Source: Bacteroidales bacterium
GTDB lineage: Bacteria > Bacteroidota > Bacteroidia > Bacteroidales > Azobacteroidaceae
Direction: 5' to 3'
Length of the DNA stretch: 64,000 nucleotides
Assembly: GCA_031553435.1 (NCBI GenBank)
Contig: JAVBLQ010000033.1
Coordinates: 846-64,845 of the forward strand
The notes under the pieces are model-generated. The model did no database searches. It was not told the DNA's origin and saw only the letters and a program-made list of their open reading frames with translations. Made by a program: the position numbers and the translations under genes. Shown here piece by piece: positions 19,045 through 60,755 of this stretch. Positions within the stretch are counted from its first letter, which is position 1. Each line of letters starts with the position of its first letter.

Positions 19045-19082
19045 TGAACATTTTTTGGTACGCGGTGCACCCAAAACATTCA
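19045..19082. repeat. minimal 38-nt version of the GTGCACC-family element
   Basis: tgaacattttttgg-tacgc-ggtgcac-ccaaaacattca. It shares both termini (TGAACAyTTTTGG / CCAAAACATTCA) with the 125-nt element at 60631-60755 but carries a single GTGCAC word. Confidence 0.55.
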
Positions 19083-19108
19083 TATCGGTCACAATAAAAA
19101 GCATAATT

Positions 19109-19396
19109 ATGAAAGGAGAATTAATCATAGTAAATGAATATTGTCTGAAATGCAATATCGAACCTTCCTTCATCCTGTTATTAGAAGAAGTAGGACTGAT
19201 TGAAATCCGTGAAATAGCCAATGAAAAATATTTTCATACATCCCAATTGTATGAATTAGAAAAGTATATCCGTTGGTATTATGATTTATCCATCAATATA
19301 GAAGGAATCGAAGTCATCAAACATTTGCTTGAAAAAATGAATGTGATGAGGGAAGAAATCAGGGAATTGAGGATGAGGCTAAATGCTTTTGATTAA
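19109..19396 (+). CDS. chaperone modulator CbpM-like (MerR-type fold)
   Basis: About 95 aa, directly downstream of cbpA. Size and position match CbpM. Start chosen at the ATG at 19109. Confidence 0.55.
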   Translation: MKGELIIVNEYCLKCNIEPSFILLLEEVGLIEIREIANEKYFHTSQLYELEKYIRWYYDLSINIEGIEVIKHLLEKMNVMREEIRELRMRLNAFD

Positions 19397-19512
19397 GTGA
19401 AAAATTAAAAGTTAACTTCATTAGTGTTACTCCTGTAAAACGATTTGTTTCAAAATCCAAAGAAAGCTTACAGACACAAAAATATAAGTAACGACCGTAT
19501 AAATATATTGTT

Positions 19513-19520
19513 TATATTTG
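19513..19520 (+). promoter_or_regulatory. candidate -7 promoter box TATATTTG
   Basis: TAnnTTTG match 52 nt upstream of the 19572 start. Confidence 0.35.
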
Positions 19521-19571
19521 TAATAATTTTGAACTCATAATTCCTTTATTATTAACTTTAATAATGTTATT

Positions 19572-21962
19572 ATGAGAAGAAAATTTTTTACCCTGTTTGC
19601 CTTATTGTGGACAATTGTAGCAATTGCTGATGTTCCCTTTGTTTATACAGTTGAAAACACAGGAGTTGGTTGTACGGCTCCTCCTCTGCCTTCTGTTAAT
19701 GACTTACCTTCAATTGTTCGCTTACCAGATCCGTTTGCCTGGTCTGATGGACATGGGAGGATCACTTCTTTTGATGACTGGAAATGTCGTCGCTCCGAAA
19801 TTAAAGCTGAAATTGAACATTACGAAATTGGCGTAAAACCCAATCGTCCGGCAAACATTTCAGCTACTTATTCAGGAAACATACTTACAGTCACTGTAAT
19901 TGAAAACGAAAAAACAGTTACATTGAAATCAAATGTTGTAATGCCTACAGCAGGTACAGGTCCGTTTCCTGTTATTATCGGAATGAATAGTCCTACAGGA
20001 AGTCTCTCTTCCTCAATCTTTTCAAGCTGTATACAGATCCCATTCATGCATGATCAGGTTGCTACGTATAATATGAGTGGAACAAAAGATCTGAATTCTC
20101 CTTTTTACCAAATGTATCCGGAGCTTTCGCAGGCGGGAGATTATTGTGCATGGTCATGGGGCGTCAGCCGTTTAATCGATGGAATAGAACTGGTGCAGCA
20201 ACAACTGAATGCCGATCTAAAACATATCGGAGTAACAGGTTGTTCTTACGCAGGTAAAATGGCGTTGTTTGCCGGAGCTTTCGATGAACGGATTGCACTT
20301 ACCATCGCTCAGGAATCAGGTGGCGGAGGAACAGCTTCATGGCGTATTTCGGAAACTCTCGGCAGTGTTGAAAAAATAAGCAGCACCAATTATTCATGGT
20401 TTATGCCGGCTTTAAGGGATAATTTCAACGGAAAAGTTGAAAAATTACCTTATGATCATCATGAATTATTATCCATGATAGCGCCCCGAGCATTATTGGC
20501 TTTAGGAAATGACGGATGGACCTGGATGGCTGATGAATCAGGCTACATAGCATGTATGGCAGCCAGAGAAGTATGGAAATTGATGGGCGTAGAAGATAGA
20601 TTTGGTTTTGATTTTACCGGCGGACACAATCATTGTTCTGCTGCTCAAAGTCAAGTTGCAGCCGTCACAAGTTTTGTTGATAGATTTTTGTGTGGTAACA
20701 ATGATATAAATACTAACATTTTAACATCTCCCTATCAAAATGTAAACTATCAGTTCTGGATCAGTGACTGGGCAAATGTAACAGAGCCCGATGTAGCATT
20801 AGAGAAAGTTTGGCTCGAAGCAGAATCAGTAGATTGCGTAACCATCGGTAGTGATTTTGCTGTAAAAGAAGACCCTAATGCTTCGAATGGAAAATATGTA
20901 ACGGCAAAAGACAATCTGAACAGTCTGGATGCAGCGCCTGGAGTACAAGGATTAATAACCATTCCTTTTACAGTAAATAAACACCGGGATTTTCATGTAT
21001 ATTTTCGTTTGAATTGTCCGGCCGGAAGCGAAGATTCATTCTGGGTACAAATAGATAATGGCCCGTTTGTTGCCTATGACGGATTAAATACTAACGGCGA
21101 ATGGCAATGGACTCATATCGTGAGCCAGGCTTTACTCGCAGGCCCTCATAAAATCAATATTGGTTATCGTGAAAATGGCGCTAAACTAGACAAAATATGT
21201 ATTACAAACGATCCGGCTAACCAGCTTCCAACAGGAATGGGGGAGTCGGAAACAGGGTGTGTTTCCATACCGAAATACTTTATTTTTGATTTTGAAACGG
21301 GAAATATTACCGGTTGGACAAAACAAAATCCGGGAAGAGGAATCGATATTACGCAAGAAGACAAATATTCGGGAGAATATGCCTTGAAAATGGTCAACGG
21401 TACAGGGACAAGTGCATGGAGCATACAAGCATTTACACCTCCGGTTGAAGTCGTATCAGGACATGCATACAATGTTTCATTTTGGATAAGAGCTGTAGGA
21501 GGAGGGGGTAAAGGACGAATTTCGACAACTGGCTCCGGACAATTGGGAAATCAATATTGGGCTGATTTTACTGTAGGAGATACATGGCAACAAGTTGCAT
21601 ATAAAAATTTAACAGCTACAGGAAATACCGTGCAATTAGCTTTTGATATGGGATATATTGCCAATAAAACTTATTACATAGATGATATTGAGTTTAAGGA
21701 TATCTCTGTTGATCCTCAACCTACTGTCATTATACCTGATATTGAAATTTCAGATATAAAGATGTTTTCTCCGGCTCCGGGTGTACTCAATGTAATGGCT
21801 CCTGAAAATTCGAAAGTGAAGATTACTGATATCATCGGAAGAACAATCGGAACATACAGTGTCCAGACGTATTCATTGGAATTATCTTTGTACACAGGAA
21901 CTTATATTGTCAGCATCGAAAATAAAAATAGAACCTGGACTCAGAAAGTCCTTGTGAAGTAG
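19572..21962 (+). CDS. CE15-like glucuronoyl esterase with carbohydrate-binding modules and T9SS C-terminal sorting domain
   Basis: 796 aa with a signal peptide. Esterase core has serine block GVTGCSYAGKMALFAG (CE15 consensus is GCSRxGK). Two beta-sandwich CBM-like regions follow (WLEAES...KICITND; GWTKQNPG...YYIDDIEF). The terminal ~75 aa end in GTYIVSIENKNRTWTQKVLVK, a T9SS type A pattern. Confidence 0.65.
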   Translation: MRRKFFTLFALLWTIVAIADVPFVYTVENTGVGCTAPPLPSVNDLPSIVRLPDPFAWSDGHGRITSFDDWKCRRSEIKAEIEHYEIGVKPNRPANISATYSGNILTVTVIENEKTVTLKSNVVMPTAGTGPFPVIIGMNSPTGSLSSSIFSSCIQIPFMHDQVATYNMSGTKDLNSPFYQMYPELSQAGDYCAWSWGVSRLIDGIELVQQQLNADLKHIGVTGCSYAGKMALFAGAFDERIALTIAQESGGGGTASWRISETLGSVEKISSTNYSWFMPALRDNFNGKVEKLPYDHHELLSMIAPRALLALGNDGWTWMADESGYIACMAAREVWKLMGVEDRFGFDFTGGHNHCSAAQSQVAAVTSFVDRFLCGNNDINTNILTSPYQNVNYQFWISDWANVTEPDVALEKVWLEAESVDCVTIGSDFAVKEDPNASNGKYVTAKDNLNSLDAAPGVQGLITIPFTVNKHRDFHVYFRLNCPAGSEDSFWVQIDNGPFVAYDGLNTNGEWQWTHIVSQALLAGPHKINIGYRENGAKLDKICITNDPANQLPTGMGESETGCVSIPKYFIFDFETGNITGWTKQNPGRGIDITQEDKYSGEYALKMVNGTGTSAWSIQAFTPPVEVVSGHAYNVSFWIRAVGGGGKGRISTTGSGQLGNQYWADFTVGDTWQQVAYKNLTATGNTVQLAFDMGYIANKTYYIDDIEFKDISVDPQPTVIIPDIEISDIKMFSPAPGVLNVMAPENSKVKITDIIGRTIGTYSVQTYSLELSLYTGTYIVSIENKNRTWTQKVLVK

Positions 21963-21973
21963 AAAAACGCTTT

Positions 21974-22049
21974 AAAAATTAACAATTAAGAATGAAAAAT
22001 GGGACTTGCACCTGACAATTCATTTTTCATTCTTAATTGTTAATTTTTT
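21974..22049 (+). terminator. long near-perfect hairpin plus T-run (AATTAAGAATGAAAAATG words), loop ACTTGCACCT
   Basis: aaaaattaacaattaagaatgaaaaatg pairs with ttcatttttcattcttaattgttaattttt (about 28 bp), followed by ttttttt. Lies 12 nt after the CE15 stop. Confidence 0.75.
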
Positions 22050-22110
22050 TTATACTAAACTTTAACTATAAATAAATAAAACAAAACTTTATTACTAATT
22101 GTTTTCTATA

Positions 22111-22118
22111 TAACTTTG
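22111..22118 (+). promoter_or_regulatory. candidate -7 promoter box TAACTTTG
   Basis: TAnnTTTG match 27 nt upstream of the kup start. Confidence 0.35.
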
Positions 22119-22144
22119 CAGCCGTTTTTTTATTTATTCGGAAG

Positions 22145-24067
22145 ATGGATAAAACGCATTTTCATCGGAAGCACTCCCCATTCCATTGGATGGGGGTTAT
22201 TATTGCGATCGGGATTGTCTACGGAGATATCGGAACTTCTCCGCTTTATGTGATGAAAGCAGTGCTGAATGCATTGCCTCATAATCATCCGGAATACATT
22301 GTCGGCGCTGTTTCCTGTGTGATCTGGACGTTGACACTACAGACAACAATCAAATATGTTTTAATTACGCTGAAGGCAGATAACAAGGGCGAAGGCGGAA
22401 TTCTTTCCTTGTTTGCTTTGATCCGTAAAAAACATCGATGGGCATATGTCATTGCAGCTGTCGGAGCAGCGACACTTTTGGCTGATGGTATTATAACTCC
22501 ATCTATTACAGTTGTTTCTGCCATTGAAGGTCTGCATAATGTTTACAATGCTGTTCCGGTTATTCCGGTTGCTATCGGGATTGTACTGGTTCTTTTTGCG
22601 TTGCAGCCATTCGGGACAGCTTCTCTCGGGCGATTTTTCGGAGTGATTATGCTGGGCTGGTTCATCATGTTGGGAGTTGTCGGCTTGTCTAATTTCATCG
22701 AATATCCTGAAATCATCAAAGCGTTTAATCCATATTATGCCATCCGGTTTCTGATTACTTCACCTTCGATTTTGGTTATTTTAGGGGCCATATTTCTTTG
22801 TACGACCGGAGCGGAAGCATTATATTCCGACTTAGGTCATTGTGGTTTGGAAAACATCCGTGCATCCTGGATTTTTGTTAAAATAACTTTGATACTGAAT
22901 TATTTAGGACAAGGAGCCTGGATTATCAACCATCAGAGTCTGATTGTGAAAGATATCAATCCGTTTTTTGAAATTATGCCCTCGTGGTTTTCCATCTTTG
23001 GCGTGATATTGGCGACCTTAGCTGCTATCATTGCCAGCCAGGCTTTGATAAGCGGTTCGTTTACAGTTATTACCGAAGCTATATCTTTGGATCTATGGCC
23101 GAATATCAAGATCAAATATCCTACTGAAGTGAAAGGGCAGATGTTTATTCCAAGCATTAATTGGGTATTGATGTTGCTTTGTATCGTGATGATTCTGGTT
23201 TTTCAAAGTTCGTCCAATATGGAAGCTGCTTACGGACTTTCCATTTCAATTACAATGTTGATGACTACCATGCTGCTTTTCCTTTATTTCAATGTGAAAA
23301 AAATATCTTTGTGGAGAGCAGTTCCGATTACACTTTGTTTTCTGATCATTGAAAGCGGTTTTCTGATGGCTAACAGTGTGAAATTCGTTCATGGAGGTTA
23401 TATTACTATCCTTATTGCAGGCGTTTTATTTTTTATCATGTTTGTCTGGTACAATGGCCGTAGAATTAAAAACCGTTGTATCACATACGAAAAAATCGGA
23501 CCGGTCATTCCGATATTAGATTCTTTGAATCAGGATGAACAGGTTCCTAAATATGCCACACACTTGGTTTATGTAACCCGGGCAAAGTATAAATCAGAAA
23601 TAGAAAGTAAAATAGCTTACTCCTTATTAAGCAGACAACCTAAACGTGCGGATACTTATTGGTTTGTTTATCTTCAGAGAAGTGACGAACCTTATCAGTT
23701 TGAATATAAAATCACCACTTTTGTAGAAAAGAAAATATTCAGGATCGATATTTTAGCAGGTTTCAAAATAGGTCTCCATATGGATACATACATTAAAAAG
23801 ATTGCAAAGAAAATGGAGGCTGATGGAATTGTGGATTTGATCAGTCGTTATCCCTCATTGAAAAAACATAAAATCAAAGGAGACTTCCGGTTTATGGTTA
23901 TTGAACGTGTGATGAGAAGCAATATCCATCTTTCGTTTTACAGGAAAACAATTTTGTCGTTGTATGCAGGAATTCAGAAATTTACAACTTCCGATACTCA
24001 GATACTGGATCTGGATCCTTCTAATGTGACGGTAGAGTCTGTGCCGTTGTTGAGGAGCCTGCCATGA
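22145..24067 (+). CDS. kup: KUP/HAK/KT potassium transporter
   Basis: 640 aa. N-terminal GIVYGDIGTSPLYVMK signature, about 12 TM helices and a cytoplasmic C-terminal domain. Confidence 0.9.
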   Translation: MDKTHFHRKHSPFHWMGVIIAIGIVYGDIGTSPLYVMKAVLNALPHNHPEYIVGAVSCVIWTLTLQTTIKYVLITLKADNKGEGGILSLFALIRKKHRWAYVIAAVGAATLLADGIITPSITVVSAIEGLHNVYNAVPVIPVAIGIVLVLFALQPFGTASLGRFFGVIMLGWFIMLGVVGLSNFIEYPEIIKAFNPYYAIRFLITSPSILVILGAIFLCTTGAEALYSDLGHCGLENIRASWIFVKITLILNYLGQGAWIINHQSLIVKDINPFFEIMPSWFSIFGVILATLAAIIASQALISGSFTVITEAISLDLWPNIKIKYPTEVKGQMFIPSINWVLMLLCIVMILVFQSSSNMEAAYGLSISITMLMTTMLLFLYFNVKKISLWRAVPITLCFLIIESGFLMANSVKFVHGGYITILIAGVLFFIMFVWYNGRRIKNRCITYEKIGPVIPILDSLNQDEQVPKYATHLVYVTRAKYKSEIESKIAYSLLSRQPKRADTYWFVYLQRSDEPYQFEYKITTFVEKKIFRIDILAGFKIGLHMDTYIKKIAKKMEADGIVDLISRYPSLKKHKIKGDFRFMVIERVMRSNIHLSFYRKTILSLYAGIQKFTTSDTQILDLDPSNVTVESVPLLRSLP

Positions 24068-24077
24068 AGAACTTATT

Positions 24078-25193
24078 TCACCATTCACATCGGTCACGAT
24101 TTGTAAAATATAAGTCGAGCATCTGCTTAGCTGCAATAAATGAGCTGATCTTTCCTTCCAGGATTTCCTGTTCTTTAGTTTCAAGAATAGATTGAATGTC
24201 AGGATTTTGATAAAAATTTGATTTCAGTTGTTCATTGATACTTTCATACATCCAGTATTTGGCTTGTTCGTTCCGTTTGTGTTGGAAATACTGATTTTCT
24301 TTGGTAAAAGAAATATACTCATCGATCATATCCCAGATTTCAGTAATTCCCAAATCATAAAAACCGGAATAAGTCAAAACTTTAGGAATCCAACCGGATT
24401 CCGGTAAAGGAAATAAATGCAGGGCATTGCGGAATTGTGCAGCTGCCAGTTTGGCGCGTTCTATATTATCTCCGTCGGCTTTGTTGATTATGATTCCATC
24501 AGCCATCTCCATGATTCCCCGTTTGATACCTTGAAGCTCATCTCCGGTACCTGCCAATTGTATAAGGAGAAAAAAATCAACCATCGAATGAACAGCCGTT
24601 TCCGATTGTCCGACACCGACAGTTTCTACGAAAATCGTGTCAAAACCTGCGGCTTCACAAAGTACGATTGTTTCTCTTGTTTTACGGGCAACACCGCCTA
24701 AAGATCCGGCTGAAGGAGAGGGGCGGATGAATGCGTCTTTTTCTCTCGAAAGTTTTTCCATTCTTGTTTTATCGCCCAGAATACTTCCTTTGGTGCGTTC
24801 GCTACTTGGATCGATAGCCAAGACTGCTAATTTTCTTTTTCTTTCATTAATAAGGTGAGTGCCGAAAGTATCTATGGAAGTACTTTTCCCGGCTCCGGGA
24901 ACGCCTGTAATACCGATTCTTGTGGAATTTCCGGAATAGGAAAGGCATTTTTCTATTACTTCTTGGGCTATTTGCTGGTGTTCGTATCTGGAGCTTTCGA
25001 CCAATGTAACAGCCTGGCTCAGGATAGTAATATTTCCTTTAACGATACCGTCAACATATTCGGCGGGAGAGTATTCTTTTCGTTGAATACGTTTTTTCGT
25101 AAGGTAAGGATTGATTGTTGGAGGTTGAGGGATTCCCTCATTAACCGTCAAACCTTTGTATTTGGGTTCGTTTTCGGGATGTTTGATCATCAC
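24078..25193 (-). CDS. meaB: methylmalonyl-CoA mutase-associated G3E GTPase (MeaB/ArgK)
   Basis: Blocks GVPGAGKST, VLAIDPSS, ETVGVGQSE and INKAD. No mutase gene lies in the window. Confidence 0.85.
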   Translation of the reverse strand: MMIKHPENEPKYKGLTVNEGIPQPPTINPYLTKKRIQRKEYSPAEYVDGIVKGNITILSQAVTLVESSRYEHQQIAQEVIEKCLSYSGNSTRIGITGVPGAGKSTSIDTFGTHLINERKRKLAVLAIDPSSERTKGSILGDKTRMEKLSREKDAFIRPSPSAGSLGGVARKTRETIVLCEAAGFDTIFVETVGVGQSETAVHSMVDFFLLIQLAGTGDELQGIKRGIMEMADGIIINKADGDNIERAKLAAAQFRNALHLFPLPESGWIPKVLTYSGFYDLGITEIWDMIDEYISFTKENQYFQHKRNEQAKYWMYESINEQLKSNFYQNPDIQSILETKEQEILEGKISSFIAAKQMLDLYFTNRDRCEW

Positions 25194-25201
25194 GATTGGA
25201 T

Positions 25202-26266: not shown

Positions 26267-26331
26267 AAAATATAATTTGATTAAGTTATTACAATATAAC
26301 AAATTTGATGTTGCAAAGTTACAAAAAGGTC

Positions 26332-26369
26332 ATAACGTTATTGCGTTTTTAACGTTAAAACGTTTTAAC
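26332..26369. repeat. short AACGTT-word palindrome
   Basis: ataacgttattgcgtttttaacgttaaaacgttttaac, with near-perfect palindromic core at 26344-26362. Overlaps the HAD stop codon. Its words are related to the AAACGT hairpin at 32245-32329. Confidence 0.45.
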
Positions 26370-26979: not shown

Positions 26980-26987
26980 ATATTTTT

Positions 26988-27103
26988 GGGTTACGGGTTA
27001 CAAGTTACGGGTTACAGGTTACGAGTTACGGGTTACAAGTAAAATGCTATAGATTACTGATTATAACCTGTAACTTGTAACCTGTAACTTGTAACCCGCA
27101 ACC
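26988..27103. repeat. intergenic hairpin element, GTTACRR heptamer family
   Basis: Left arm 26988-27039 has 7 GTTACGG/GTTACAA/GTTACAG/GTTACGA heptamers. Right arm 27066-27103 is acctgtaacttgtaacctgtaacttgtaacccgcaacc. Lies in the divergent region between the HAD (-) and S9 peptidase (+) starts. Confidence 0.85.
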
Positions 27104-27207
27104 TTATCACTTTTTTGTTAAAATCGACACAAAAGTAATAAAATTATACTTAATAAAGCATTTTTATTTTACCTTCGTAATCTATTGATCATACTAAATT
27201 GTTATTT

Positions 27208-29115: not shown

Positions 29116-29220
29116 ATTGAGAAAGTGAAGAGTGAAGAGTGAAGAATTAAAATTGACTTTGTCAATTTTATTTTATCATGCGTAAGCAAAATTCTTCACT
29201 CTTCATTCTTCACTCTCAAT
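29116..29220. repeat. intergenic hairpin element, GTGAAGA word family, with nested inner hairpin and loop GCTTACGCAT (minus strand)
   Basis: attgagaaagtgaagagtgaagagtgaagaat pairs with attcttcactcttcattcttcactctcaat. The loop contains a perfect 9-bp hairpin aaaattgac-ttt-gtcaatttt (29149-29169) and atgcgtaagc (29178-29187). Lies between convergent genes and starts 1 nt after the S9 stop. Confidence 0.85.
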
Positions 29221-31357: not shown

Positions 31358-31375
31358 GCTATGTTATTTTTTAAT

Positions 31376-31490
31376 GTGAAAGATGATGGTCGTTTCGCTC
31401 CTTTGTGAACTCGTTTCACTCGCTGTGAAGAGATGAGAAATACAACTCACCTTTCACAAAGGAGCGAAGCGATCTTCACCCTTCACTTTC
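31376..31490. repeat. ~110-bp palindromic repeat, GTGAAG-TCGCTTCGC family, copy 3 of 4
   Basis: gtgaaagatgatggtcgtttcgctcctttgtgaactcgtttcactcgctgtgaagagatgagaaatacaactcacctttcacaaaggagcgaagcgatcttcacccttcactttc. Lies in the divergent region between uxuA and hdrC. Confidence 0.85.
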
Positions 31491-32245: not shown

Positions 32246-32329
32246 TTTTACGTTTTGTGTTTTACGTTATACGTTGGCTTACGCACAACAAAACGTAAAA
32301 CGTAAAACGTAAAACGTACCACGTATAAC
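32245..32329. repeat. intercistronic hairpin element, AAACGT word family, loop GCTTACGCAC
   Basis: gttttacgttttgtgttttacgttatacgt / aaaacgtaaaacgtaaaacgtaaaacgtaccacgtataac, with the loop motif at 32277-32286. Confidence 0.85.
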
Positions 32330-32334
32330 TTGTT

Positions 32335-33266: not shown

Positions 33267-33277
33267 TTAAAAAAATT

Positions 33278-36716: not shown

Positions 36717-37727
36717 ATGGCTAATATAAAATTATTAAGAAAAGAAGCTTACAACAAACTGGTTAATAAGCTTCTTGAAAAAAATAAAATCTACGCACCA
36801 ACCCAACAAGGCAAACGCGTAGGATACCAACGGATCACATCTGCTGAAGAAATTGCCGACGATTTCATCATTCCGGATATGTCGGCCAAATCCATTGTTT
36901 TTCCACGGACAGAAAAATTATTCGGATATACTAAAGATCAGAATGATGTGGAAGTCCAGGATTTTGATATGGAAGCTGTTCCTTACAAGATTGTTTGGGG
37001 AATCCGTCCATGCGATGCGGCAGGCATTCAAAGTCTGGCTGCTATTTTCAACTGGGGTCCGGCCGATCCGATTTTTGCACGCCGTTTGGAATGTACAACT
37101 TTCGTAGGACTTTCCTGTTCAAAAGCTGATGATTATTGCTTTTGTACTTCTTTAGGTGGAGGTCCTGGTAATACCAAAGGATGTGATATTTTACTCACAA
37201 AAACAGATGATGGAGATTTCATCGCTGAAATCCTTACTCCAAAAGGAGACGCAATTTTTGAATCTGCACCTGAATTATTCGAAGATTCGGAGAACTTAGA
37301 TAAAGAAAAATATCTGGCCAATGTTCCCAAACGCTTTGATGATACAAATTTAACTGAACGCATCAATGGTGTTTTTGATACCAATATGTTTGATGAATAT
37401 GCTATGCGTTGTCTGGGTTGTGCGGCTTGTGCCTATGTTTGCCCAGTTTGCGCCTGTTTCGACATTCAGGATGAAACCAAAGGAAGCAAAGGACAACGGA
37501 TACGTACCTGGGATTCCTGCGGAGCTAAATTATTTACTTTACATACTTCGGGACATAATCCGCGTGAAACTCAGGGAGCCCGCTGGCGTCAACGCCTGAT
37601 GCATAAGTTTGCCTATATGCCCGAACGTTTGAGTGTACGTGGCTGCATCGGTTGCGGACGTTGCTCACGCCGTTGCCCGGTCGACATGAACATTGCAGAA
37701 AGTTTAAATAATTTGCCAATTAAATAA
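36717..37727 (+). CDS. AsrA/HydB/FlxB-like iron-sulfur protein
   Basis: 336 aa with CLGCAACAYVCPVCACF and CIGCGRCSRRCP motifs. Size and pattern resemble the anaerobic sulfite reductase A / sulfhydrogenase beta family. Confidence 0.65.
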   Translation: MANIKLLRKEAYNKLVNKLLEKNKIYAPTQQGKRVGYQRITSAEEIADDFIIPDMSAKSIVFPRTEKLFGYTKDQNDVEVQDFDMEAVPYKIVWGIRPCDAAGIQSLAAIFNWGPADPIFARRLECTTFVGLSCSKADDYCFCTSLGGGPGNTKGCDILLTKTDDGDFIAEILTPKGDAIFESAPELFEDSENLDKEKYLANVPKRFDDTNLTERINGVFDTNMFDEYAMRCLGCAACAYVCPVCACFDIQDETKGSKGQRIRTWDSCGAKLFTLHTSGHNPRETQGARWRQRLMHKFAYMPERLSVRGCIGCGRCSRRCPVDMNIAESLNNLPIK

Positions 37728-37773
37728 TTTGCCAATATGCCAATGTTACGAAAAATTGGCACATTGGCATATT
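37710..37773. repeat. intercistronic hairpin element, ATATGCCAAT word family
   Basis: Left words aatttgccaat...tttgccaatatgccaatg overlap the last codons (NNLPIK) and the stop codon. The right arm attggcacattggcatat (37755-37772) is identical to 3271-3288. Loop is ttacgaaaa. Confidence 0.8.
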
Positions 37774-37791
37774 ATCACATTAATTTATTAA

Positions 37792-38640: not shown

Positions 38641-38717
38641 GAAAGTGAAAAGTGAAAAATTAAAAGTGAGCTTACGCCCAAAATAACTTTTCACTTTTCA
38701 CTTTCTTTTTCACTTTC
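38641..38717. repeat. intergenic hairpin element, GTGAAAA word family, loop GCTTACGCCC
   Basis: gaaagtgaaaagtgaaaaattaaaagtgag pairs with ttttcacttttcactttctttttcactttc. Loop motif at 38670-38679. Lies between convergent genes and overlaps the stop of the 38710 esterase gene. Confidence 0.85.
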
Positions 38718-45200: not shown

Positions 45201-46294
45201 ATACCGGAATCGGTATTCCGGCCGATAAACTGAACCAGATTTTCGATCGTTTTTATCAGGTGGATGATAATTATACTACCGGGACCGGACTGGGTCTGGC
45301 CATTACAAAAGAGATTATCACCGCCCATCATGGAGAAATCAGGGTGAACAGCGAAGTGGAAAAAGGAACCACATTCCTGATCCGCCTTCCCTTGGGAGAT
45401 CAGCATATCCTGGATTCGCAAAAAGTACCGGCAAGGAATGTAGACATGTCGTGCATCGAAGAATTATCCATGAATCAGGATATTAATTTCTCTGAAGATA
45501 TTGAAAACAATGAAAACGAAGAAGATAAAACAAAGTCCAAAATATTGATTGTAGAAGATAACAGAGAATTAGTAGAACTTCTGAATCGTTTATTTTCATC
45601 CGTCTACGAAGTTCATACAGCCTTTGATGGAGAAGAAGGTCTGGAAAAAGCCAAAGAAATACAACCGAATATCATTTTAAGCGATATCATGATGCCTAAA
45701 ATGTCAGGCATCGAAATGTGTCGCAAGATCAAAGATAATTTTGATACCTGTCACATCCCCGTCATTCTCTTGACTGCCCAAAATTCGGAAGAATACTTGA
45801 TTGAAGGCTTGAAAATGAGCGCCGACGATTATATCACTAAACCATTCAATGTAAAACATTTGTTCACCCGATGCAACAATCTGTTGAACAACAGAAAATT
45901 ACTACAAAAGAAATATGCAAAACTTTCAGACTCCAACCCGGATACACTGGCAACAAACAGTTACGATCAACAGTTCCTGACCCAATGTATCCAGATTATA
46001 GAAAACAACATCAGCGATATTGATTTTGATGTCAACCAGTTTGCCCAGGAAATAGGACTGGGAAGAACCAAACTCTTTTTGAAAATAAAAGGCATCACCG
46101 GCTTAACTCCGAATGACTTTATTCTCAATGTCCGCCTGAAAAAATCACAAGTATTATTGGAAGAACCCGGAGAAAGAACCATTTCGGAAATTGCCTACGA
46201 CGTAGGATTCAATTCCCCCAGTTATTTCATCAAACGATTCAGGGAGCTGTATGGGGTGACGCCTTCGCAGTTCAAGAAAAAAGTGAAAAACTAA
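42290..46294 (+). CDS. hybrid two-component system sensor/regulator (HTCS)
   Basis: About 1334 aa. Periplasmic beta-propeller repeats (GLSQSTV, WIGT motifs) and a Y_Y_Y region, a TM helix, H-box FFTNISHEFRTPLTL, ATPase G-boxes, receiver ILIVEDN...SDIMMP, and AraC HTH SPSYFIKRFRELYGVTPSQF. The ORF track start 42233 is a TTG and is rejected. Confidence 0.9.
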   Translation: MILRYILLLTIIIVVSHLSFSQEIHFQKIDAEDGLSQSTVTSIYQDEFGIMWIGTKDGLNRYSGDDFQVFRPITGNKNSIFNNNIGTVCGDRNGHIYVRCKFAAVEYDMRLNIFHTIQENNVQTISYGLNRLWICTSDSIYSYDSKGKKKQFYYAFPEKKIKITCILENSNKEIYVGTQNSGLFIIDGNKKRLNYLPGVHIIQIYEDSKRNMWISTRDDGLIKMDRNGEFVNYKNDPQDKNSISDNYTRAVCEDNFGNYWIATFKGLNKLDLSTGKITYYQKENKPYSLVNSSLICITKDQQGSLWIGSYHGGINIFNPEYEIYNYYYPDESIPGKLSSPFVVRMQEDEKGNLWIATEGGGLNYLDRETKHFTVYRHQSQSNSISTNNIQGLYLDRNRNALWIGTLLGGLDKLDLKSKKFTNYHHISGDKESLVNNNVRKIIPYKDSLLLSTHNGIVMFKPENGKCRRLFDKPQFDYRFIIDMIVDGDNNLWFSYSLGLIKYNLETGVLKEYLAADIPIGNNLVNVIFQDREKRIWIGSSGDGIFLYEPQHDKFKPYNSGNSDLINNYILDIKESLSGYLLISTNQGFSRFDIENGKFYNYNKQNGFPVTALNPYGMFVTSNNQIFLSGTKMMISFNEKELNSNVKPCQVNFISMELNNKLIVPNDDSGILSESLLYQSTIQLNHKHSVMSINLSLPDYVSLLKNKIYYKLEGFDNTWTDINYRNRIIYTNLSPGKYKLVIKSVDENSSNDRILKELNIIVTPPFYRTWTAYGLYLFILVISIYLIASFYSSKLKLRNSLDLEKKEKIQIEKINQSKLRFFTNISHEFRTPLTLIISQLEMLIERNDIKPQVYNRLVNVHRNAIRMKRLITELLDFRKQEQGFKELKFSKQNIYLFLEEVYLSFKEYARFREINLEFLNKDSFLEVWFDVEQMEKSVNNILSNAFKYTPQKGTIAISVEIDNHNVYIRISDTGIGIPADKLNQIFDRFYQVDDNYTTGTGLGLAITKEIITAHHGEIRVNSEVEKGTTFLIRLPLGDQHILDSQKVPARNVDMSCIEELSMNQDINFSEDIENNENEEDKTKSKILIVEDNRELVELLNRLFSSVYEVHTAFDGEEGLEKAKEIQPNIILSDIMMPKMSGIEMCRKIKDNFDTCHIPVILLTAQNSEEYLIEGLKMSADDYITKPFNVKHLFTRCNNLLNNRKLLQKKYAKLSDSNPDTLATNSYDQQFLTQCIQIIENNISDIDFDVNQFAQEIGLGRTKLFLKIKGITGLTPNDFILNVRLKKSQVLLEEPGERTISEIAYDVGFNSPSYFIKRFRELYGVTPSQFKKKVKN

Positions 46295-46363
46295 AAACTA
46301 AAAGTGAAAAGTAAATTGTTATGCGCAAGTCCAACTTTTCACTTCTCACTTTTAGTTTTTCAC
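46278..46363. repeat. intergenic hairpin element, GTGAAAA/CTAAAAA word family, loop ACTTGCGCAT (minus strand)
   Basis: aaaaagtgaaaaactaaaaactaaaagtgaaaagt pairs with ttttcacttctcacttttagtttttcac. The HTCS stop (46292-46294) lies inside the left arm. Confidence 0.85.
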
Positions 46364-49532: not shown

Positions 49533-49544
49533 TACAATTATACA

Positions 49545-51206: not shown

Positions 51207-51208
51207 AT

Positions 51209-51312
51209 GGTGAAGGGGTCGCTTCGCTCCTGTGAACTCACTTCGTTCGTTGTGAAGGTTTCACTGTAAACGAAGTGAATTTCACAGGAGCGAAGCGACT
51301 TTCACCTTTCAC
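51209..51312. repeat. ~110-bp palindromic repeat, GTGAAG-TCGCTTCGC family, copy 4 of 4
   Basis: ggtgaaggggtcgcttcgctcctgtgaactcacttcgttcgttgtgaaggtttcactgtaaacgaagtgaatttcacaggagcgaagcgactttcacctttcac. Lies inside the PUL operon between SusD and the next gene. Confidence 0.85.
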
Positions 51313-51329
51313 AAATAAATTCTATGCAC

Positions 51330-54284: not shown

Positions 54285-54301
54285 ATTAAAATTAAAAAGT
54301 T

Positions 54302-55237: not shown

Positions 55238-55320
55238 AACACTGAACACACGGATTACACGGAGAGTCACAGAAATATAATATTCCGCGAAACTCCGTGT
55301 ACTCCGCGTATTCCGCGTTC
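55237..55320. repeat. intercistronic hairpin element, ACACGGA/TACGCGGA word family
   Basis: gaacactgaacacacggattacacggag is about 70 percent complementary to ctccgtgtactccgcgtattccgcgttc. Begins at the upstream stop codon. Confidence 0.65.
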
Positions 55321-55338
55321 TATTCAAATACAAAAATC

Positions 55339-58300
55339 ATGAAATTGACATACCACATACACATCCTTCTTCTATTTATCTTCTTATGGATAAATAAAAA
55401 TACGCTCGTGGCAGGAGATATAAACCTGGCCCTGCATAAGCCTGTAACCGCTTCATCACAAGACGATAACGGGCCGGCCTCCAATGTCACCGACGGACGG
55501 ATTTCACGCAATCATGCATGGATCACAAGAACTTCCGCCCGCCCGCCGCATATGCTGGATGTCAACTTGCAAAAATATTGCGAAATCAATCGCATCATAA
55601 TATACACTGGTATCCCCACTACAGAAAAGAAAAAAAACGAAACCGGACAAGCTGCCGGATTCTGGTCGGTCAAAAACCTGAAACTGCAATACTGGGACGA
55701 TGCCAACTGGACAGACCTTCCACAAACCGAGATCAATGAAAACAGACTGGATACCATTGTATTTAACTTCAAACCCTCATTAACTACATTCCGGATCCGC
55801 TTGATTTCTCTGGACGGAGAACCCATCCGGATCAATGAAATAGAAATTTACGGAACGGAAAAGAAAAACATGCCTTCTCCCGAAGCCTCCGAAGTAAAAA
55901 ACATTCCTGCCGGAAAACAAACAGGCAACGATATAAACATTTACATTAACAATGAAGTGATCGGTAAGTCAATGAAATACGTGGCTTACAATCAAGGTTA
56001 CTACATGCCGGGAAGTAATGCATCCGACTGGCTCGATTATTCAAACGCAAACAGCCTTCGCGTTTGGACATCATTGAGAGAGTACATTCCCGAATCATTC
56101 GTCATGGTCGATAAAAAGCTCAATACCTTATCCCAGTTTGAAACTTACAAACAGGAGTTACGCAACAATCCTGAAAACAACCGCTTCATCGATTGGAAAA
56201 CAATCAATGAAAACGCTGAAAAAGAAATGACATCCACCAACTCCATGATATTAAAATATACATTGGAAGAAACCAAACGGATGAAAATCGACGTAGTCTT
56301 GCAAATCAACGACCGCAATTTTACCAACGAATGGTCGAACAAATGGCAGCAATGGCAACGTTTCTATGCACTGGCCTTCTATGCCGCCAAAACAGGAGAT
56401 GTGAACATGTTTGCCATGCAAAACGAACCCAATCACCGTCATTCCGGCCCGATGACCATAGATAATTACATCACCGGACTGCAAATCGTTTCGGATGCCG
56501 TACACTGCGCCGTTGACGATGTGAACAGAATTTACGGAAAAAATCTGCAGGCCAAAGTAGTTTCACCCGTCACGGCAGGAGCCAATGCCAACTGGTGGTC
56601 GGAAATCATGAAAAATATCCGCACCAATTATAAAGGAACTCCCGGAGAAAGAGATCTATTGGATATCTTTTCTACTCACGCCTACAATCTTCCGGCTATG
56701 GGGTATAGTACCAAAGTAAACGAAATAAGGGAATTACTCAAGGAAAATCATCCCTTGAAAACAGCTCCTCCTATTGTTTTTACAGAAACAGGCCGCTGGA
56801 TGAATGCCTATTTGATCGATAAATACGAAACAATGGATTCACCTTCCTTATTCACCGAATGGGCCGGAGAATACACCAATAATACATTGAACGGTTGCTA
56901 CGGAATGTGGGCCTTCAAATTCGCCAATACAACAAGCGGAACCTACCCGCGGGGAATCAAATCAGGACACCACTTTACCTGGCAGGGAAAAAGAATCGTG
57001 GAAGACGCATACACAAACGTAGCCAAAGGAAAAACCGTTTGGGATAAAACTTCCTCACAACCGGTAAAAGCAAATCAGGTCTGCGACGGAGATAAAAGCG
57101 ACGAATCTGCATGGTTCTCTCCGGCCACTACAGATGATAAATATCTTGAAATAGACCTGGACAACCCATATTCGTTGGGAGGCGCCGTAGTATACACAGG
57201 TTCTTCGGCAGGCGTTTATACCGGTCCGGACCGCGTCAAGAAATTCAAACTGCAATACTGGACAGGAAGCGACTGGCAAGACATCAAAGAAACAATAGAA
57301 CAAAACGCCAGATACGCTCAATCATTCTATATTTTCGACTCTCCGGTCAAAACTTCCAAAGTTCGCTTTGTATCGACCGACGACGGTATTATCAAAGTAC
57401 GGGAAATTAAACTTTTCGAAGCCTCGTCCATGCAAAATATCAAGCCATCATACGATATAAGCGGCATACAACGCACCGGAGAAGTAGTCCGCCTGTTCGC
57501 CAAAGGATTCAAAGAAGAAAGACCCATCTTTAATACGACCAAATCTGAGGCAGACAACGATCTGGATGCCTTAACTTCCTTTGATCCGCAAGCCAATGTT
57601 TATTATATGTGGCTGGTGCAACGTAAACCCATCTCAAACAAATTAACGATAGATTTCAGTAAGCTGAATCTTCCCGAAAATGCAAGAATCATTGCCGAAG
57701 AAGTCAGCAACAACCATTACGGAGATGTTATCTGGGTGAAAGCAGTCGACAATAATCAGACTTTGACAATGGATCTGCCGGCACAAAGTGTTGTACTGCT
57801 GACAATCCCTGTAGCCGGTAATGAAAACTATAAAAAGCTGACTTGCGATGCCGATGCTACCATCAAAGGAGGAAAAAATAGTCGAACAAATCAAGGAGCC
57901 GGAAAAGAACTTTTTGTAGAAATGAATGCATCACAAGCAGACAACAACCAGATCAGCTACATTCGTTTCGATCTGAAAGATATGGATAAAAACAAACTGA
58001 ATGCAGCCATCTTATCCGTCTATGCAAAATCATCATCCGAATCTCCTTACCGCTTACACGTATATGCCGTTGAAGACGAAAACTGGAAAGAAAATAATAT
58101 CACCTGGGAAAATGCACCCAATCTCGACAAAGGACAATGTATCATTTCCGGCGCCGGAAAAACAGCACGGATGGCTGGAGAATTAGTGGCGGAACAAACA
58201 CCCGGCTATTGTTCGTTGGATGTAACAAAAATCCTTCGTAACACTAAAGGAAGATACATCTCTTTCGTTTTCATCCGTGAACTGAGACAATTAGGAGACG

Positions 58301-58374
58301 ATACCGATAACGGGAAAAAGATGATTATTCATTCCCGCGAGTCAGCCAATCAACCACAGCTTATATGTTGGTAA
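55339..58374 (+). CDS. multidomain clan-GH-A-like glycoside hydrolase (family unassigned) with two F5/8 type C (discoidin) domains
   Basis: About 1011 aa from MKLTYHIHILLLF. Discoidin-like regions (NLALHKPVTASSQ...IRINEIEIYG and NVAKGKTVWDKTSS...IKVREIKLFE). Core has FAMQNEPNH (acid/base) and IVFTETGRW (nucleophile). C-terminal beta-sandwich ISYIRFDL...ITWENAP. Confidence 0.55.
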   Translation: MKLTYHIHILLLFIFLWINKNTLVAGDINLALHKPVTASSQDDNGPASNVTDGRISRNHAWITRTSARPPHMLDVNLQKYCEINRIIIYTGIPTTEKKKNETGQAAGFWSVKNLKLQYWDDANWTDLPQTEINENRLDTIVFNFKPSLTTFRIRLISLDGEPIRINEIEIYGTEKKNMPSPEASEVKNIPAGKQTGNDINIYINNEVIGKSMKYVAYNQGYYMPGSNASDWLDYSNANSLRVWTSLREYIPESFVMVDKKLNTLSQFETYKQELRNNPENNRFIDWKTINENAEKEMTSTNSMILKYTLEETKRMKIDVVLQINDRNFTNEWSNKWQQWQRFYALAFYAAKTGDVNMFAMQNEPNHRHSGPMTIDNYITGLQIVSDAVHCAVDDVNRIYGKNLQAKVVSPVTAGANANWWSEIMKNIRTNYKGTPGERDLLDIFSTHAYNLPAMGYSTKVNEIRELLKENHPLKTAPPIVFTETGRWMNAYLIDKYETMDSPSLFTEWAGEYTNNTLNGCYGMWAFKFANTTSGTYPRGIKSGHHFTWQGKRIVEDAYTNVAKGKTVWDKTSSQPVKANQVCDGDKSDESAWFSPATTDDKYLEIDLDNPYSLGGAVVYTGSSAGVYTGPDRVKKFKLQYWTGSDWQDIKETIEQNARYAQSFYIFDSPVKTSKVRFVSTDDGIIKVREIKLFEASSMQNIKPSYDISGIQRTGEVVRLFAKGFKEERPIFNTTKSEADNDLDALTSFDPQANVYYMWLVQRKPISNKLTIDFSKLNLPENARIIAEEVSNNHYGDVIWVKAVDNNQTLTMDLPAQSVVLLTIPVAGNENYKKLTCDADATIKGGKNSRTNQGAGKELFVEMNASQADNNQISYIRFDLKDMDKNKLNAAILSVYAKSSSESPYRLHVYAVEDENWKENNITWENAPNLDKGQCIISGAGKTARMAGELVAEQTPGYCSLDVTKILRNTKGRYISFVFIRELRQLGDDTDNGKKMIIHSRESANQPQLICW

Positions 58375-58393
58375 AACTATATACGGTTGCGGA

Positions 58394-58454
58394 AAAATTT
58401 ACGCCTGTCGTAAGAAAATTTACGCCTGTCGTAGCAAAATTTACGCCTGTCGTA
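58394..58454. repeat. 3 x 21-bp tandem direct repeat AAAATTTACGCCTGTCGTA
   Basis: Identical 19-mers at 58394, 58415 and 58436, each holding the inverted pair TTACG-N5-CGTAA. A degenerate fourth copy, aaaatttacttgcaat, sits at 58475. Confidence 0.85.
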
Positions 58455-58506
58455 AATTTTTCCACAAACGGATGAAAATTTACTTGCAATAATATTGAAA
58501 TTGATA

Positions 58507-58557
58507 TGAACATTTTTGAGGGCACCGTGTACCGTGTACCGTGCACCTTTGCACCTA
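58507..58557. repeat. half element of the GTGCACC/GTGTACC word family
   Basis: tgaacatttttgagggcaccgtgtaccgtgtaccgtgcacctttgcaccta. It shares the terminus TGAACAyTTTTG and the word array with 60631-60755, but I found no complementary arm nearby. Confidence 0.6.
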
Positions 58558-58606
58558 AAAGATTCATATCGGCACTATATAAAACAACACAAACTAATTT
58601 TCAACC

Positions 58607-60622
58607 ATGCTAAAAAATATATCCATCCCAATCAAACCATTACTGATTCTCCTGCTTATAGGACTCGGTAATACGGCATATGCTGAAAATCATGTGATTG
58701 AACTACCCAAATGTATCAGTTCGCACATGGTGCTTCAGCGCGAAACGCCTGTAAAGTTGTGGGGATGGGGAACGCCCGGAGATACGATTATCGTGGAATT
58801 AACCAGACAAGGCCAGATCTTCAAAGACTCCGTCAAAGTAGATGAAAACAAACGTTGGCTCATCAGGTTGCCAGCTCAACCGGTATGTAGTGAAGCCTGT
58901 AAGCTGAAATTCCATATCAAAGGCCATCCGGAAATCACACAGACACTGGATGATATACTGATTGGAGATGTTTGGTTCGCCGGAGGCCAGTCTAACATGG
59001 AGAAAAAAGTGAACTATATGCTCGAAACAGGACAATATACACAGGAAGCCGACAATTATCCGCAAATCCGTTCGTTCAGGGCGAGCTATTATCCGCAAAC
59101 AAGCCCTCAGGAAAGAGTCAACAGCGCATCAGGTACCTGGTTTGTGTGCAACAGTACGGAAATTGCAGATAAAGTCTCTGCCGTAGCCTATGTTTATGCC
59201 CGTAGTTTATATGAAAATCTCAATATTCCGATAGGCATCATGCAATCATACCGGGGAGGAACGGAAATCGAGACATGGATGAGCCCCGGGATATTCAATG
59301 ATCCCGAATTATGTAAAATAGCGGGACGCAAAGCATATATAACTCCGGGAACCGCATCCCAGGATCATTCCCTTCATTTTAACGGACAAATCAATCCCCT
59401 GCTCAATTTCCCTATCAAAGGTTTTATTTTCTATCAGGGAGAAAGCAATATCAAACGGGCGCTGGAATATCGTTTCATGATGAGAAAACTGATTGAAGAT
59501 TGGAGAAACCTCTGGGGAATGGGCGATTTGCCTTTTTATTATGTCCAATTGCCTAATATTTATGCAACTTCTTCATACGACGAATCCAACTGGCCGGACT
59601 GCCGCGAACAACAAGCATTGCTTTTGTCTGACTATGTGGCAAACCTTGGTATGGCCGTTACAATCGACACCAATGATGAAGCGCTTAATCCGGACAACAA
59701 CATCAATATCCATCCGCATAATAAAAAACCGGTGGGAGAAAGACTTGCCCGTATTGCATTGAAAAACACATACCATTTCGATATCCTTGCCGAAGGACCT
59801 GCCGTGAACCGTTATGAATTTTCCGGCAATTCCGTTTATCTGTATTTCAAAAATTATGGCGACGGATTAAAAATAAAAGCAGGAGAAAGCTCCCTCAAAG
59901 GTTTTATCATCAGCGGAAGCGATAAAAAATTCTATACGGCAACCGCAACAATACATGATGACAGTACTGTCGTGGTCAGTAGCAGTTCCGTTTCCAGTCC
60001 GGTAGCCGTACGCTATGACTGGGCAAGGAATCCCATAGGTAATTTGTATAATTCCATTGATATACCGGCAACACCGTTCAGAACAGATATCTGGAAATCG
60101 AAGTTTACCTATACATCTTTCCAGTCTTCCTGTACTTCAAAAAGTAGTGATGCGGATTTAATGATGATTAAAGTAAACGGGGTAACACTTCCTGACTTCG
60201 ATCCTCAAAAGCTAACTTACAACTATATCCCTGAAAATCAGAATTATCAGGACGTAAGTGCTGTAACCAACAATCCTTTCGCCTCAATCGTCAAAGTAGA
60301 AACAGAAAACAAAGTGACACTGAAAGTAACAGCCGAAAATGGTTCCGTTCAATCATACGAAATCAACTTCAAAAGTCCGACATCTATACCGGAAAACACA
60401 ATCCAATTATTTCATGTTTTTCAGGAAAACAAAAAGATAATCATACAAAACAACTCAGGCAAACAACATCAGATCAAAATATATAATCACAACGGACAGC
60501 ATATTATCTCTGATAAAATAAAAGAAAATGAGCAGAAGACTTATACTTTGCCACTTGGTGTTTATATTATCGATTGGATAAATAGCGGGCAAAGCAATAG
60601 CATGAAATTTATTTTGAAGTGA
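58607..60622 (+). CDS. sialate O-acetylesterase-like esterase with cadherin-like domain and T9SS C-terminal sorting domain
   Basis: 671 aa. GDVWFAGGQSNME and FYQGESN blocks (SASA family), a cadherin-like sandwich (DADLMMIKVNGVTLPDFDPQKLTYNY...YEINFK), and a tail ending in GVYIIDWINSGQSNSMKFILK. Confidence 0.7.
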   Translation: MLKNISIPIKPLLILLLIGLGNTAYAENHVIELPKCISSHMVLQRETPVKLWGWGTPGDTIIVELTRQGQIFKDSVKVDENKRWLIRLPAQPVCSEACKLKFHIKGHPEITQTLDDILIGDVWFAGGQSNMEKKVNYMLETGQYTQEADNYPQIRSFRASYYPQTSPQERVNSASGTWFVCNSTEIADKVSAVAYVYARSLYENLNIPIGIMQSYRGGTEIETWMSPGIFNDPELCKIAGRKAYITPGTASQDHSLHFNGQINPLLNFPIKGFIFYQGESNIKRALEYRFMMRKLIEDWRNLWGMGDLPFYYVQLPNIYATSSYDESNWPDCREQQALLLSDYVANLGMAVTIDTNDEALNPDNNINIHPHNKKPVGERLARIALKNTYHFDILAEGPAVNRYEFSGNSVYLYFKNYGDGLKIKAGESSLKGFIISGSDKKFYTATATIHDDSTVVVSSSSVSSPVAVRYDWARNPIGNLYNSIDIPATPFRTDIWKSKFTYTSFQSSCTSKSSDADLMMIKVNGVTLPDFDPQKLTYNYIPENQNYQDVSAVTNNPFASIVKVETENKVTLKVTAENGSVQSYEINFKSPTSIPENTIQLFHVFQENKKIIIQNNSGKQHQIKIYNHNGQHIISDKIKENEQKTYTLPLGVYIIDWINSGQSNSMKFILK

Positions 60623-60630
60623 AATCGGTA

Positions 60631-60755
60631 TGAACACTTTTGGGTGCAAAGGTGCACGGTGCAGGGTGCACGAATTGCTTACGCCTGATAGTGCACTACA
60701 TCTGATAAACCGACCGTGCACCGTGCACCGTGTACCGTGCACCCAAAAACATTCA
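60631..60755. repeat. intercistronic hairpin element, GTGCACC/GTGTACC word family, loop GCTTACGCCT
   Basis: tgaacacttttgggtgcaaaggtgcacggtgcagggtgcacg pairs with cgtgcaccgtgcaccgtgtaccgtgcacccaaaaacattca. Loop motif at 60677-60686. Confidence 0.85.

Follow-up and report, generated by a model that had tools for sequence, protein, structure and literature searches.

Do the short hairpins that share their ends with long ones in a bacterial genome grow into them by gaining internal words, or are they what the long ones leave behind? The question is raised by three sequences at positions 19045, 58507 and 60631 of a 64,000-nt stretch of DNA, here called the window, from a Bacteroidales bacterium of the Azobacteroidaceae (GenBank assembly GCA_031553435.1, contig JAVBLQ010000033.1, positions 846 to 64,845). 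A preliminary description had ordered them as the minimal (38 nt), half and fully expanded (125 nt) forms of one terminal-repeat hairpin whose arrays of 7-nt words expand in situ on both arms. Our best explanation, to which we assign a probability of about 0.7, is that the three sites carry one non-coding, intergenic, nested palindromic family and that its short forms were derived from full ones by internal deletion. The size series is real and runs mainly downward: the several sizes and the decay were borne out by the analysis, whereas expansion in situ on both arms is not supported.

A nested palindromic family in gene spacers

Reading of the window confirmed that the three sequences lie at the positions given for them. 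In all three, an A end and a B end of the same family are present, with GAAATCGATRTGAACA flanking one side and CATTCATATCGGTCAC or CATTCAATTAGGTYAC the other, and a blastn-short comparison with the family end consensuses gave E values of 2e-7 (19045), 3e-3 (58507) and 9e-8 (60631), so that their membership of one family is well beyond chance. The 13-nt terminus that the preliminary description had found in common is by itself not significant (four matches in the window vs 2.3 expected), but the homology among copies is longer than had been claimed and reaches 15–45 nt past that terminus, which rules out a chance likeness of the termini. The element truly measures about 60 nt in the minimal copy and about 160–190 nt in full ones. 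Another match, at 63180-63192, extends over 13 nt only and was left out of the copy count. For the copy at 58507 the preliminary description gave a single terminus and a single array, but both ends are there (TGAACATTTTTGAGGG ... CACCTAAAAGATTCA); one arm of the copy is a single degenerate word and the other is complete. RNA folding predicted hairpins for all three window copies, the full copy reaching −67 to −68 kcal/mol (z about −7.3 to −7.5) on either strand and the short copies z scores of −2.6 to −3.2.

The genome (G000) is a 3.3-Mb draft of a member of the Bacteroidota, with 37% GC, 148 contigs and 98.5% completeness. Copies were gathered genome-wide with regular expressions for word arrays and by blastn with the 44-nt core and with the end consensuses. 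This collection of all copies and their array lengths, as the preliminary description had proposed, yielded 19 full copies with the 44-nt core, two or three that are rearranged and, lacking the core, at least 15 short copies; blastn with the core alone returned 19 full cores at 91–100% identity and two truncated ones. Every copy is intergenic, that is, between open reading frames (ORFs), and most lie between co-directional genes, a few to tens of nucleotides past the upstream stop.

Read from A to B, a full copy consists of an outer shell, the A end, a T-run with GGG, about four heptamer words and the core, followed by three to four words, CCC with an A-run, the B end and again the outer shell. 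The words of the arms are built on the palindromic hexamer GTGCAC. The 44-nt core, GAATTGCTTACGCCTGATARTGCACTRCRTCTGATAAACCGACC, has the apex motif GCTTACGC at its start, and the outer shell, AAACTGTTTAAGTTTTCAAAATG, continues from the ends in many copies. The A end is TTGAAATCRATRTGAACA, and the B end, related yet distinct, reads GTGACCNATNTGAATG toward the centre; the element ends thus read AAACTGTTTAAG... and GAAATCGATATGAACA / GTGACCNATNTGAATG, and the terminal inverted repeats of 30–45 nt are imperfect. Each of the 19 full copies combines an A end of TGAACA or GAATA type with a B end of TGAATG type. This asymmetry is an inherited mark of a common ancestor and not a local feature. From it stems the CA/CA mismatch that had been reported for all copies: two of the three window copies have it, but the third has CA/GA. 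The core occurs in two subfamilies, ...CTACATCTG... and ...CTGCGTCTG... (ACA and GCG variants), which track its orientation relative to the A and B ends (10 vs 9 copies; exceptions in contigs C63 and C100). The interior can stand inverted relative to the ends.

The minimal copy lies between a DnaJ-type cbpA gene (stop 19014-19016) and a cbpM-like gene (ATG 19110). The cbpA–cbpM spacer is 93 nt long here, vs 0–16 nt with no hairpin in 11 of the 11 relatives that keep the gene pair. The outer shell is present in 30 copies in this genome and in at most two in each of 40 relatives, and a search of the same relatives with the core gave one 25-nt array match only. When an 18-mer of the core was scanned over the genomes of 185,579 species, 25 single hits were obtained; the two from Bacteroidota are inside coding sequence and unrelated, and the other 23, uninspected and mostly from unrelated phyla, we take for chance, being about the expected number. 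A scan of metagenomes with a core 23-mer gave no hits. The composite was acquired or amplified recently and in this lineage specifically. Since the core is 91–100% identical at 19 loci and absent from the other genomes and metagenomes searched, it cannot have originated locus by locus. The full copies were dispersed as ready-made units, because the core is confined to this genome and split into two subfamilies; shared arm alleles and the single inherited end asymmetry are evidence for the same.

The word itself is more widespread. Metagenome contigs L069-L078 carry GGTGCAC/GGTACAC heptamer arrays, some of more than 15 units and several with a clear inverted partner array downstream. These contigs span 37–66% GC and therefore come from unrelated organisms; the GGTGCAC word recurs far outside this lineage.

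Deletion, growth and other origins of the size series

If the arms had grown together at each site, an arm should be read from its partner; what it matches best is an arm elsewhere. Among the 19 full copies the identity of an arm to its own partner averages 0.80, with perfect complementarity in none, and its identity to the best arm at another locus averages 0.97 and is mostly 1.00. The arms are a handful of inherited alleles, such as GGGTGCACGGTACGCGGTGCACGGTGCAC and GGGTGCAAAGGTGCACGGTGCAGGGTGCAC, and have not grown in step at each site. The interior lengths are bimodal, with short interiors of 18–47 nt, full ones of 89–117 nt and nothing between. Joining a prefix to a suffix of an existing full copy reproduces 12 of the 15 short interiors with 0 mismatches, and in 10 of those 12 (11/15 overall) the junction is exactly the 6-nt GTGCAC. 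One arm is cut to its outermost word in all 12 matching forms, the other retaining one to four words. The junction of the minimal window copy is the one found at C27:4839 and C148:4504, from which this copy differs by the lack of one 7-nt word and by one substitution; the copy at 58507 has the same junction type as its nearest relative, C98:43635, with an additional CGTGTAC word and about four substitutions. One arm of the C6 copy has an extra GGTGCAC word. One-word slippage thus occurs, one-sided and small.

GTGCAC is its own reverse complement, and the inverted arms are therefore also direct repeats, from which the exact junctions of the short copies are predicted. Slipped mispairing stimulated by palindromes is a classical route of deletion. 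Here, replication would stall at the base of the folded palindrome, and the nascent GTGCAC end could re-pair with a GTGCAC of the far arm, so that the core and one arm would be skipped; repair after cleavage of the hairpin would be an alternative to a stalled polymerase. The outermost word of one arm would in this way be rejoined to any word of the other. A self-complementary word gives a palindromic repeat its own decay route. The element is probably selfish or neutral DNA that is tolerated in gene spacers and has no dedicated cellular function, and it would place a long hairpin in operon transcripts when co-transcribed.

The short copies have the pattern of internal-deletion derivatives; the direction is what we infer, and several points weigh against the deletion reading. 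The identity of prefix plus suffix is formally symmetric and fits insertion as well as deletion, and it is parsimony, setting seven short structures against one full architecture together with the uniqueness of the core, that suggests the deletion direction in these sequences. We found no target-site duplication, empty paralogous site or partner transposase. Some short forms are found in identical copies at different loci (C27, C148 and window 19045; C137 and C60); short forms may thus spread as well, or the same deletion may have happened repeatedly. Some copies stand at contig ends of the 148-contig draft, so that arm mosaics and inversions may be partly assembly artefacts, and gene positions came from a crude ORF caller of our own.

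The model of the preliminary description, in which a minimal terminal-repeat hairpin grows in place by symmetric word expansion on two arms and later decays, is highly improbable. The arms are mismatched within a copy and identical between loci, the word order is kept across copies, including the variant second word GTACGC or GTACAA, the unique 44-nt core is not producible by word expansion, and there are no intermediates between 47 and 89 nt. These observations stand against a difference of one word between close copies (C6; 58507 vs C98:43635), arrays of up to more than 15 GGTGCAC/GGTACAC units in the unrelated metagenome contigs and the consideration that the heptamer arrays of such elements, whose length varies between species, must ultimately come from slippage (PMC4692102). 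We also think it unlikely that the short forms represent target hairpins of A and B ends that are empty or filled in part, with the arm–core–arm segment as a mobile unit that homes to apexes in either orientation. Such nested insertion would account for A and B ends that enclose GGCGAAA words (C15:607, C24:1962, C67:32256) or AAACGT words (C31:896, C77:61797), for an outer shell with a different interior at C32:5329-5511 and nearly empty shells at C44:7006 and C34:11164, and for interiors in both orientations relative to the ends, and the junction GTGCAC could be a duplicated target. However, the implied inserts vary (64–85 nt) and are asymmetric, consisting of one arm plus core and sometimes part of the other arm, unlike a fixed unit; the short forms keep one to five words in a graded series with no clean empty class; and orientation tracks the two core subfamilies, for which a few old inversions suffice. 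The ends and shell around other interiors could reflect either exchange between elements or nested insertion.

It has further to be asked whether the hairpins are maintained as RNA, that is, as a selected structural element such as an RNase III site, an mRNA stabiliser or an operon decoupler, for which a mobile origin would still be possible and in which stem pairing and apex would be the conserved features. The hairpins indeed have a very high stability (z about −7), they occupy spacers of co-directional genes and are over-represented where genes converge (14/49 hairpins vs 11% of spacers), the apex read on its reverse strand is GC-GYAA-GC, a GNRA-type cap, and the A/B mismatches turn into G-U pairs on one strand. 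Yet perfectly paired arms occur in no copy, the core takes either orientation relative to the ends in about 50:50 proportion, the family is confined to one genome, 11 relatives lack any element in the cbpA–cbpM spacer, and there is no Rfam match; such a role is distinctly unlikely. A strand-specific RNA role was rejected on the ground that the orientation of the apex relative to the transcription of flanking genes is unbiased (15 sense, 13 antisense). Rfam covariance models gave 0 matches in the window at the gathering score, and further scans returned only sub-threshold matches to generic hairpins (miRNA precursors) and one tRNA. An intrinsic terminator was likewise rejected: on both strands the stem has the T-run before it and the A-run after it, and a terminator scan was silent at the three sites.

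Heptamer-armed hairpins, their apex and PF05635 cassettes

The family is part of a larger population. A Tandem Repeats Finder census of the genome gave 218 pairs of inverted word arrays at most 120 nt apart, 199 of them with period 7 and three inside ORFs, vs 24 pairs in the direct-orientation control. GTGCAC is the second commonest word among these array hairpins, and the family belongs to the approximately 200 heptamer-armed hairpins of this genome. Nine gene-sized 'cassettes' between arrays of the same word were dismissed as ordinary host genes (LolA-like, AraC, TerD, Rex and others) that two hairpins happen to flank.

The family core opens with a 12-nt apex, GCTTRCGCACRA, of which the genome has 50 copies vs one for the reversed control. 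It caps hairpins with different arm words, including GAAAATT, AAACGTA, GGCGAAA and GTGAAGA, and is enriched in other genera of the bacterial family (41 copies in genome G021, 13 in G023, 11 in G006, eight in G013 and seven in G010), again between heptamer arms of other words. The population is very dense, about 200 heptamer-armed hairpins per 3.3 Mb, with an apex conserved across genera and interchangeable arms. In this genome the apex motif is also the exact junction of a chimera of two families and serves as inverted terminus to an insert of about 375 nt. We see a small chance that the apex (GCTTRCGCACRA / GCTTACGCACGA) is a putative recognition or cleavage site of a DNA recombination system directed at hairpin loops. 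If it exists, its action would disperse, flip and exchange heptamer-armed hairpins and, with them, the PF05635 cassettes whose arms are shared, and the GTGCAC family would be one of its non-autonomous substrates. Should the apex prove to be the site of an enzyme, the long-unexplained excess of intergenic heptamer repeats in bacteria would become approachable from there.

The chimera lies at C95:10860-10960, where the left half of a GTGCAC-family copy (end, arm, GAATT) meets, exactly at GCTTACGC, the right half of a hairpin with GGCGAAA words; its two arms are unable to pair, and the structure suggests exchange between families at the apex motif. The insert is found at C80:1971-2408 and C71:708-1110, where a family left half (shell, arm and the core's first 25 nt) runs into about 375 nt that contain six to eight tandem copies of a 23-nt unit (GTCGTTGAATAACGGGATGAAGG) and are bounded by inverted GCTTACGC...GCACCAGGATCGCGAAGCGATC ends. 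It gave no Rfam match and no convincing ORF. That the core is a deletion remnant of this insert was rejected: only the first 25 nt are shared, and 969 of 2000 shuffles score as well.

PF05635 is the family of the 23S rRNA intervening sequence (IVS) protein, a four-helix bundle, and of its 12 genes in this genome 10 are enclosed by inverted word arrays, with a word that differs from gene to gene (Table 1). The cassette around the gene at C34:29300-29773 uses GGTGCAC, and its arms are identical at 31–32 of 33 positions to arm alleles of the gene-less family. The 125-nt form, described before as fully expanded, is not the largest relative: a 460-nt cassette with near-identical arms carries a PF05635 gene. 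Among the 29 closest homologues of the C34 protein in the order, at least 17 are flanked by inverted arrays, none with GTGCAC words. Across 41 genomes the number of PF05635 genes does not follow that of apex hairpins. The protein was discarded as a specific mobiliser and is not regarded as the demonstrated one, as G006 has 11 apex copies and no gene, G033 no apex copy and 16 genes, and the closest homologues go with unrelated words. The idea that the core is a remnant of the C34 cassette interior was dropped, the resemblance being weak and by eye only.

Relation to known repeats, and minor observations

Correia elements (CREE/NEMIS) of Neisseria and similar MITEs (miniature inverted-repeat transposable elements) are non-coding, intergenic and 100–200 nt long, with long imperfect terminal inverted repeats. 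Correia elements fold into hairpins, are co-transcribed with their neighbours, and exist as full-length and internally deleted forms with the same termini. The present family resembles them in size, intergenic non-coding character, imperfect terminal repeats, hairpins and the coexistence of full forms with shorter, probably internally deleted ones, and has, as MITEs do, many dispersed copies (19 full and at least 15 short). It differs in that its arms are tandem heptamer arrays and its parts are shells within shells, with no TA-type target duplication demonstrable and no partner transposase found. At C26, C32, C44 and C106 the ends pass into TTA/TAA, letters that themselves belong to the inverted repeat. 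An autonomous partner element would show as a pair of outer-shell ends separated by over 250 nt; the assembly has none, but as a draft it may hide insertion sequence copies at contig ends. The family is not demonstrably a cut-and-paste MITE. The BOX elements of Streptococcus pneumoniae are modular: their terminal modules are conserved, and the number of tandem units inside, of about 45 nt each, varies. Conserved ends and variable internal unit number are common to both, but BOX has neither two inverted arrays nor a palindromic word. The short tandemly repeated repetitive sequences (STRR) of cyanobacteria are another type of intergenic heptamer array.

Other heptamer arrays are the GGGAATC arrays of Xanthomonas, with 70–75 convergent inverted pairs per genome, near the upstream ORF and variable in length (PMC4692102), and the TAACTGA repeats of Beggiatoaceae, Cyanobacteria and some Bacteroidetes (PMC4679880). 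Like these, the family has tandem 7-nt intergenic units in inverted pairs able to form stem-loops near the end of an upstream gene; unlike them, its arrays are short (about four units) and sit inside a conserved unique shell around a conserved apex and core, the whole unit being dispersed. Families of repetitive extragenic palindromic (REP) sequences with GTAG and CGTC tags form doublets (REPINs), spread with REP-associated tyrosine transposases (RAYTs), whose long hairpins decay to non-mobile remnants (PMC3733652). Our family too consists of dispersed extragenic palindromes, but is longer, built of heptamer words and without a GTAG or CGTC tag. A REPIN/RAYT system was excluded: PF01797 (IS200/IS605-like Y1) had 0 matches in the genome, the control being positive in 6 of 14 genomes. 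The ORF-bearing 23S rRNA IVSs (S23p/PF05635; Coxiella) are hairpin-bounded cassettes (PMC4990558), with which the family has in common two inverted arrays of approximately 7-nt words that form a stem; the three window copies, however, are gene-less and lie outside rRNA, and their loops of 0–44 nt hold no PF05635 gene. Within the heptamer-armed intergenic hairpins, a class already described in part, the element is a variant specific to its lineage; as a kind of bacterial repeat the family looks unusual but is essentially ordinary. Full-text literature searches retrieved no paper on an apex-capped, shell-nested family, on a GTGCAC deletion series, on the link to PF05635 or on an apex shared across genera with interchangeable arms.

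Table 1. Coordinates of the family copies and related features. Positions without a contig name are those of the window; (-) marks the reverse strand, and C numbers name contigs of the genome.
Feature	Position	Strand	Remark
Minimal copy	19035..19092	.	spacer cbpA-cbpM
Minimal copy, A end	19035-19050		GAAATCGATGTGAACA
Minimal copy, T-run	19051-19056		
Minimal copy, residual words	19057-19072		GGTACGCGGTGCACCC
Minimal copy, A-run	19073-19076		
Minimal copy, B end	19077-19092		CATTCATATCGGTCAC
Short copy	58497..58575	.	'half' form of the preliminary description; the 58507 copy
Short copy, A end	58497-58512		GAAATTGATATGAACA
Short copy, T-run	58513-58517		
Short copy, collapsed left word, then complete right arm	58518-58556		GAGGGCAC CGTGTAC CGTGTAC CGTGCAC CTTTGCAC C
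Short copy, A-run	58557-58560		
Short copy, B end	58561-58575		GATTCATATCGGCAC
Full copy	60606..60775	.	
Full copy, outer-shell remnants	60606-60620 and 60766-60775		
Full copy, A end	60621-60637		GAAATCGGTATGAACAC; start shares two bases with upstream stop TGA 60620-60622
Full copy, T-run	60638-60641		
Full copy, left arm	60642-60671		allele X, GGGTGCAAAGGTGCACGGTGCAGGGTGCAC
Full copy, 44-nt core	60672..60715	+	GAATTGCTTACGCCTGATAGTGCACTACATCTGATAAACCGACC; 'ACA' subfamily, + relative to A-to-B ends; GCTTACGC at start
Full copy, right arm	60716-60744		
Full copy, A-run	60745-60749		
Full copy, B end	60750-60765		CATTCAATTAGGTTAC
Array hairpin	50-115		other word
Array hairpin	11313-11453		other word
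Array hairpin	21972-22048		other word
Array hairpin	26988-27104		other word
Array hairpin	29124-29216		other word
Array hairpin	32259-32329		other word
Array hairpin	37726-37781		other word
Array hairpin	38642-38716		other word
Array hairpin	46279-46351		other word
Full 12-nt apex	80-91		
Full 12-nt apex	18040-18051	(-)	
Full 12-nt apex	32277-32288		
8-nt apex motif only	29180-29187	(-)	GCTTACGC
8-nt apex motif only	38670-38677		GCTTACGC
Array-flanked PF05635 gene	C34:29300-29773		
Array-flanked PF05635 gene	C8:986-1470		
Array-flanked PF05635 gene	C87:10291-10760		
Array-flanked PF05635 gene	C62:44201-44555		
Array-flanked PF05635 gene	C76:3597-4034		
Array-flanked PF05635 gene	C81:22908-23326		
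Array-flanked PF05635 gene	C92:20604-21028		
Array-flanked PF05635 gene	C128:25021-25425		
Array-flanked PF05635 gene	C29:13279-13711		
Array-flanked PF05635 gene	C104:23157-23625		

The elements matter for annotation, as they create false start codons and lengthen operon spacers. An ATG at 60630, inside the repeat (ATGAACAC...), opens an 849-aa ORF, for which the ATG at 60799 (ATGAAAAAAAAC..., signal-peptide-like) is a more plausible start. They also touch the assembly: two contigs end within family copies (C94:47000-47090 and C90:1-100) and share about 85 nt of identical flank in reverse complement, a break that is due to the element or to a larger repeat containing it.

Nine paralogous genes (C24:1-70, C30:~400, C26:~1060, C66:~430, C98:41346, C8:10138(-), C10:19300(-), C146:13375(-) and C73:14205(-)) bear an arm sequence, GGGTGCACGGTACGCGGTGCACGGTGCACGG, at their 3′ end, and no partner arm lies downstream of it. 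In the five of seven translated loci with a readable ORF, it stands in frame at the end of a signal-peptide protein of about 90 aa with the tail ...LLLLAALAGARYAVHGARRKTKR*, and the tail variants RYAVH, RCTVR, RLAVH and RYMVQ mirror the word variation. Three direct copies of TTTACGCCTGTCGTA, spaced by about 21–22 nt, are found at window 58397-58456 and at C63:27356, C77:27733 and C104:8439; these operator-like triplets lie mostly just upstream of genes, and a decayed family copy adjoins at two of the four loci. The TTACGCCTG common to these repeats and the core is probably a coincidence.

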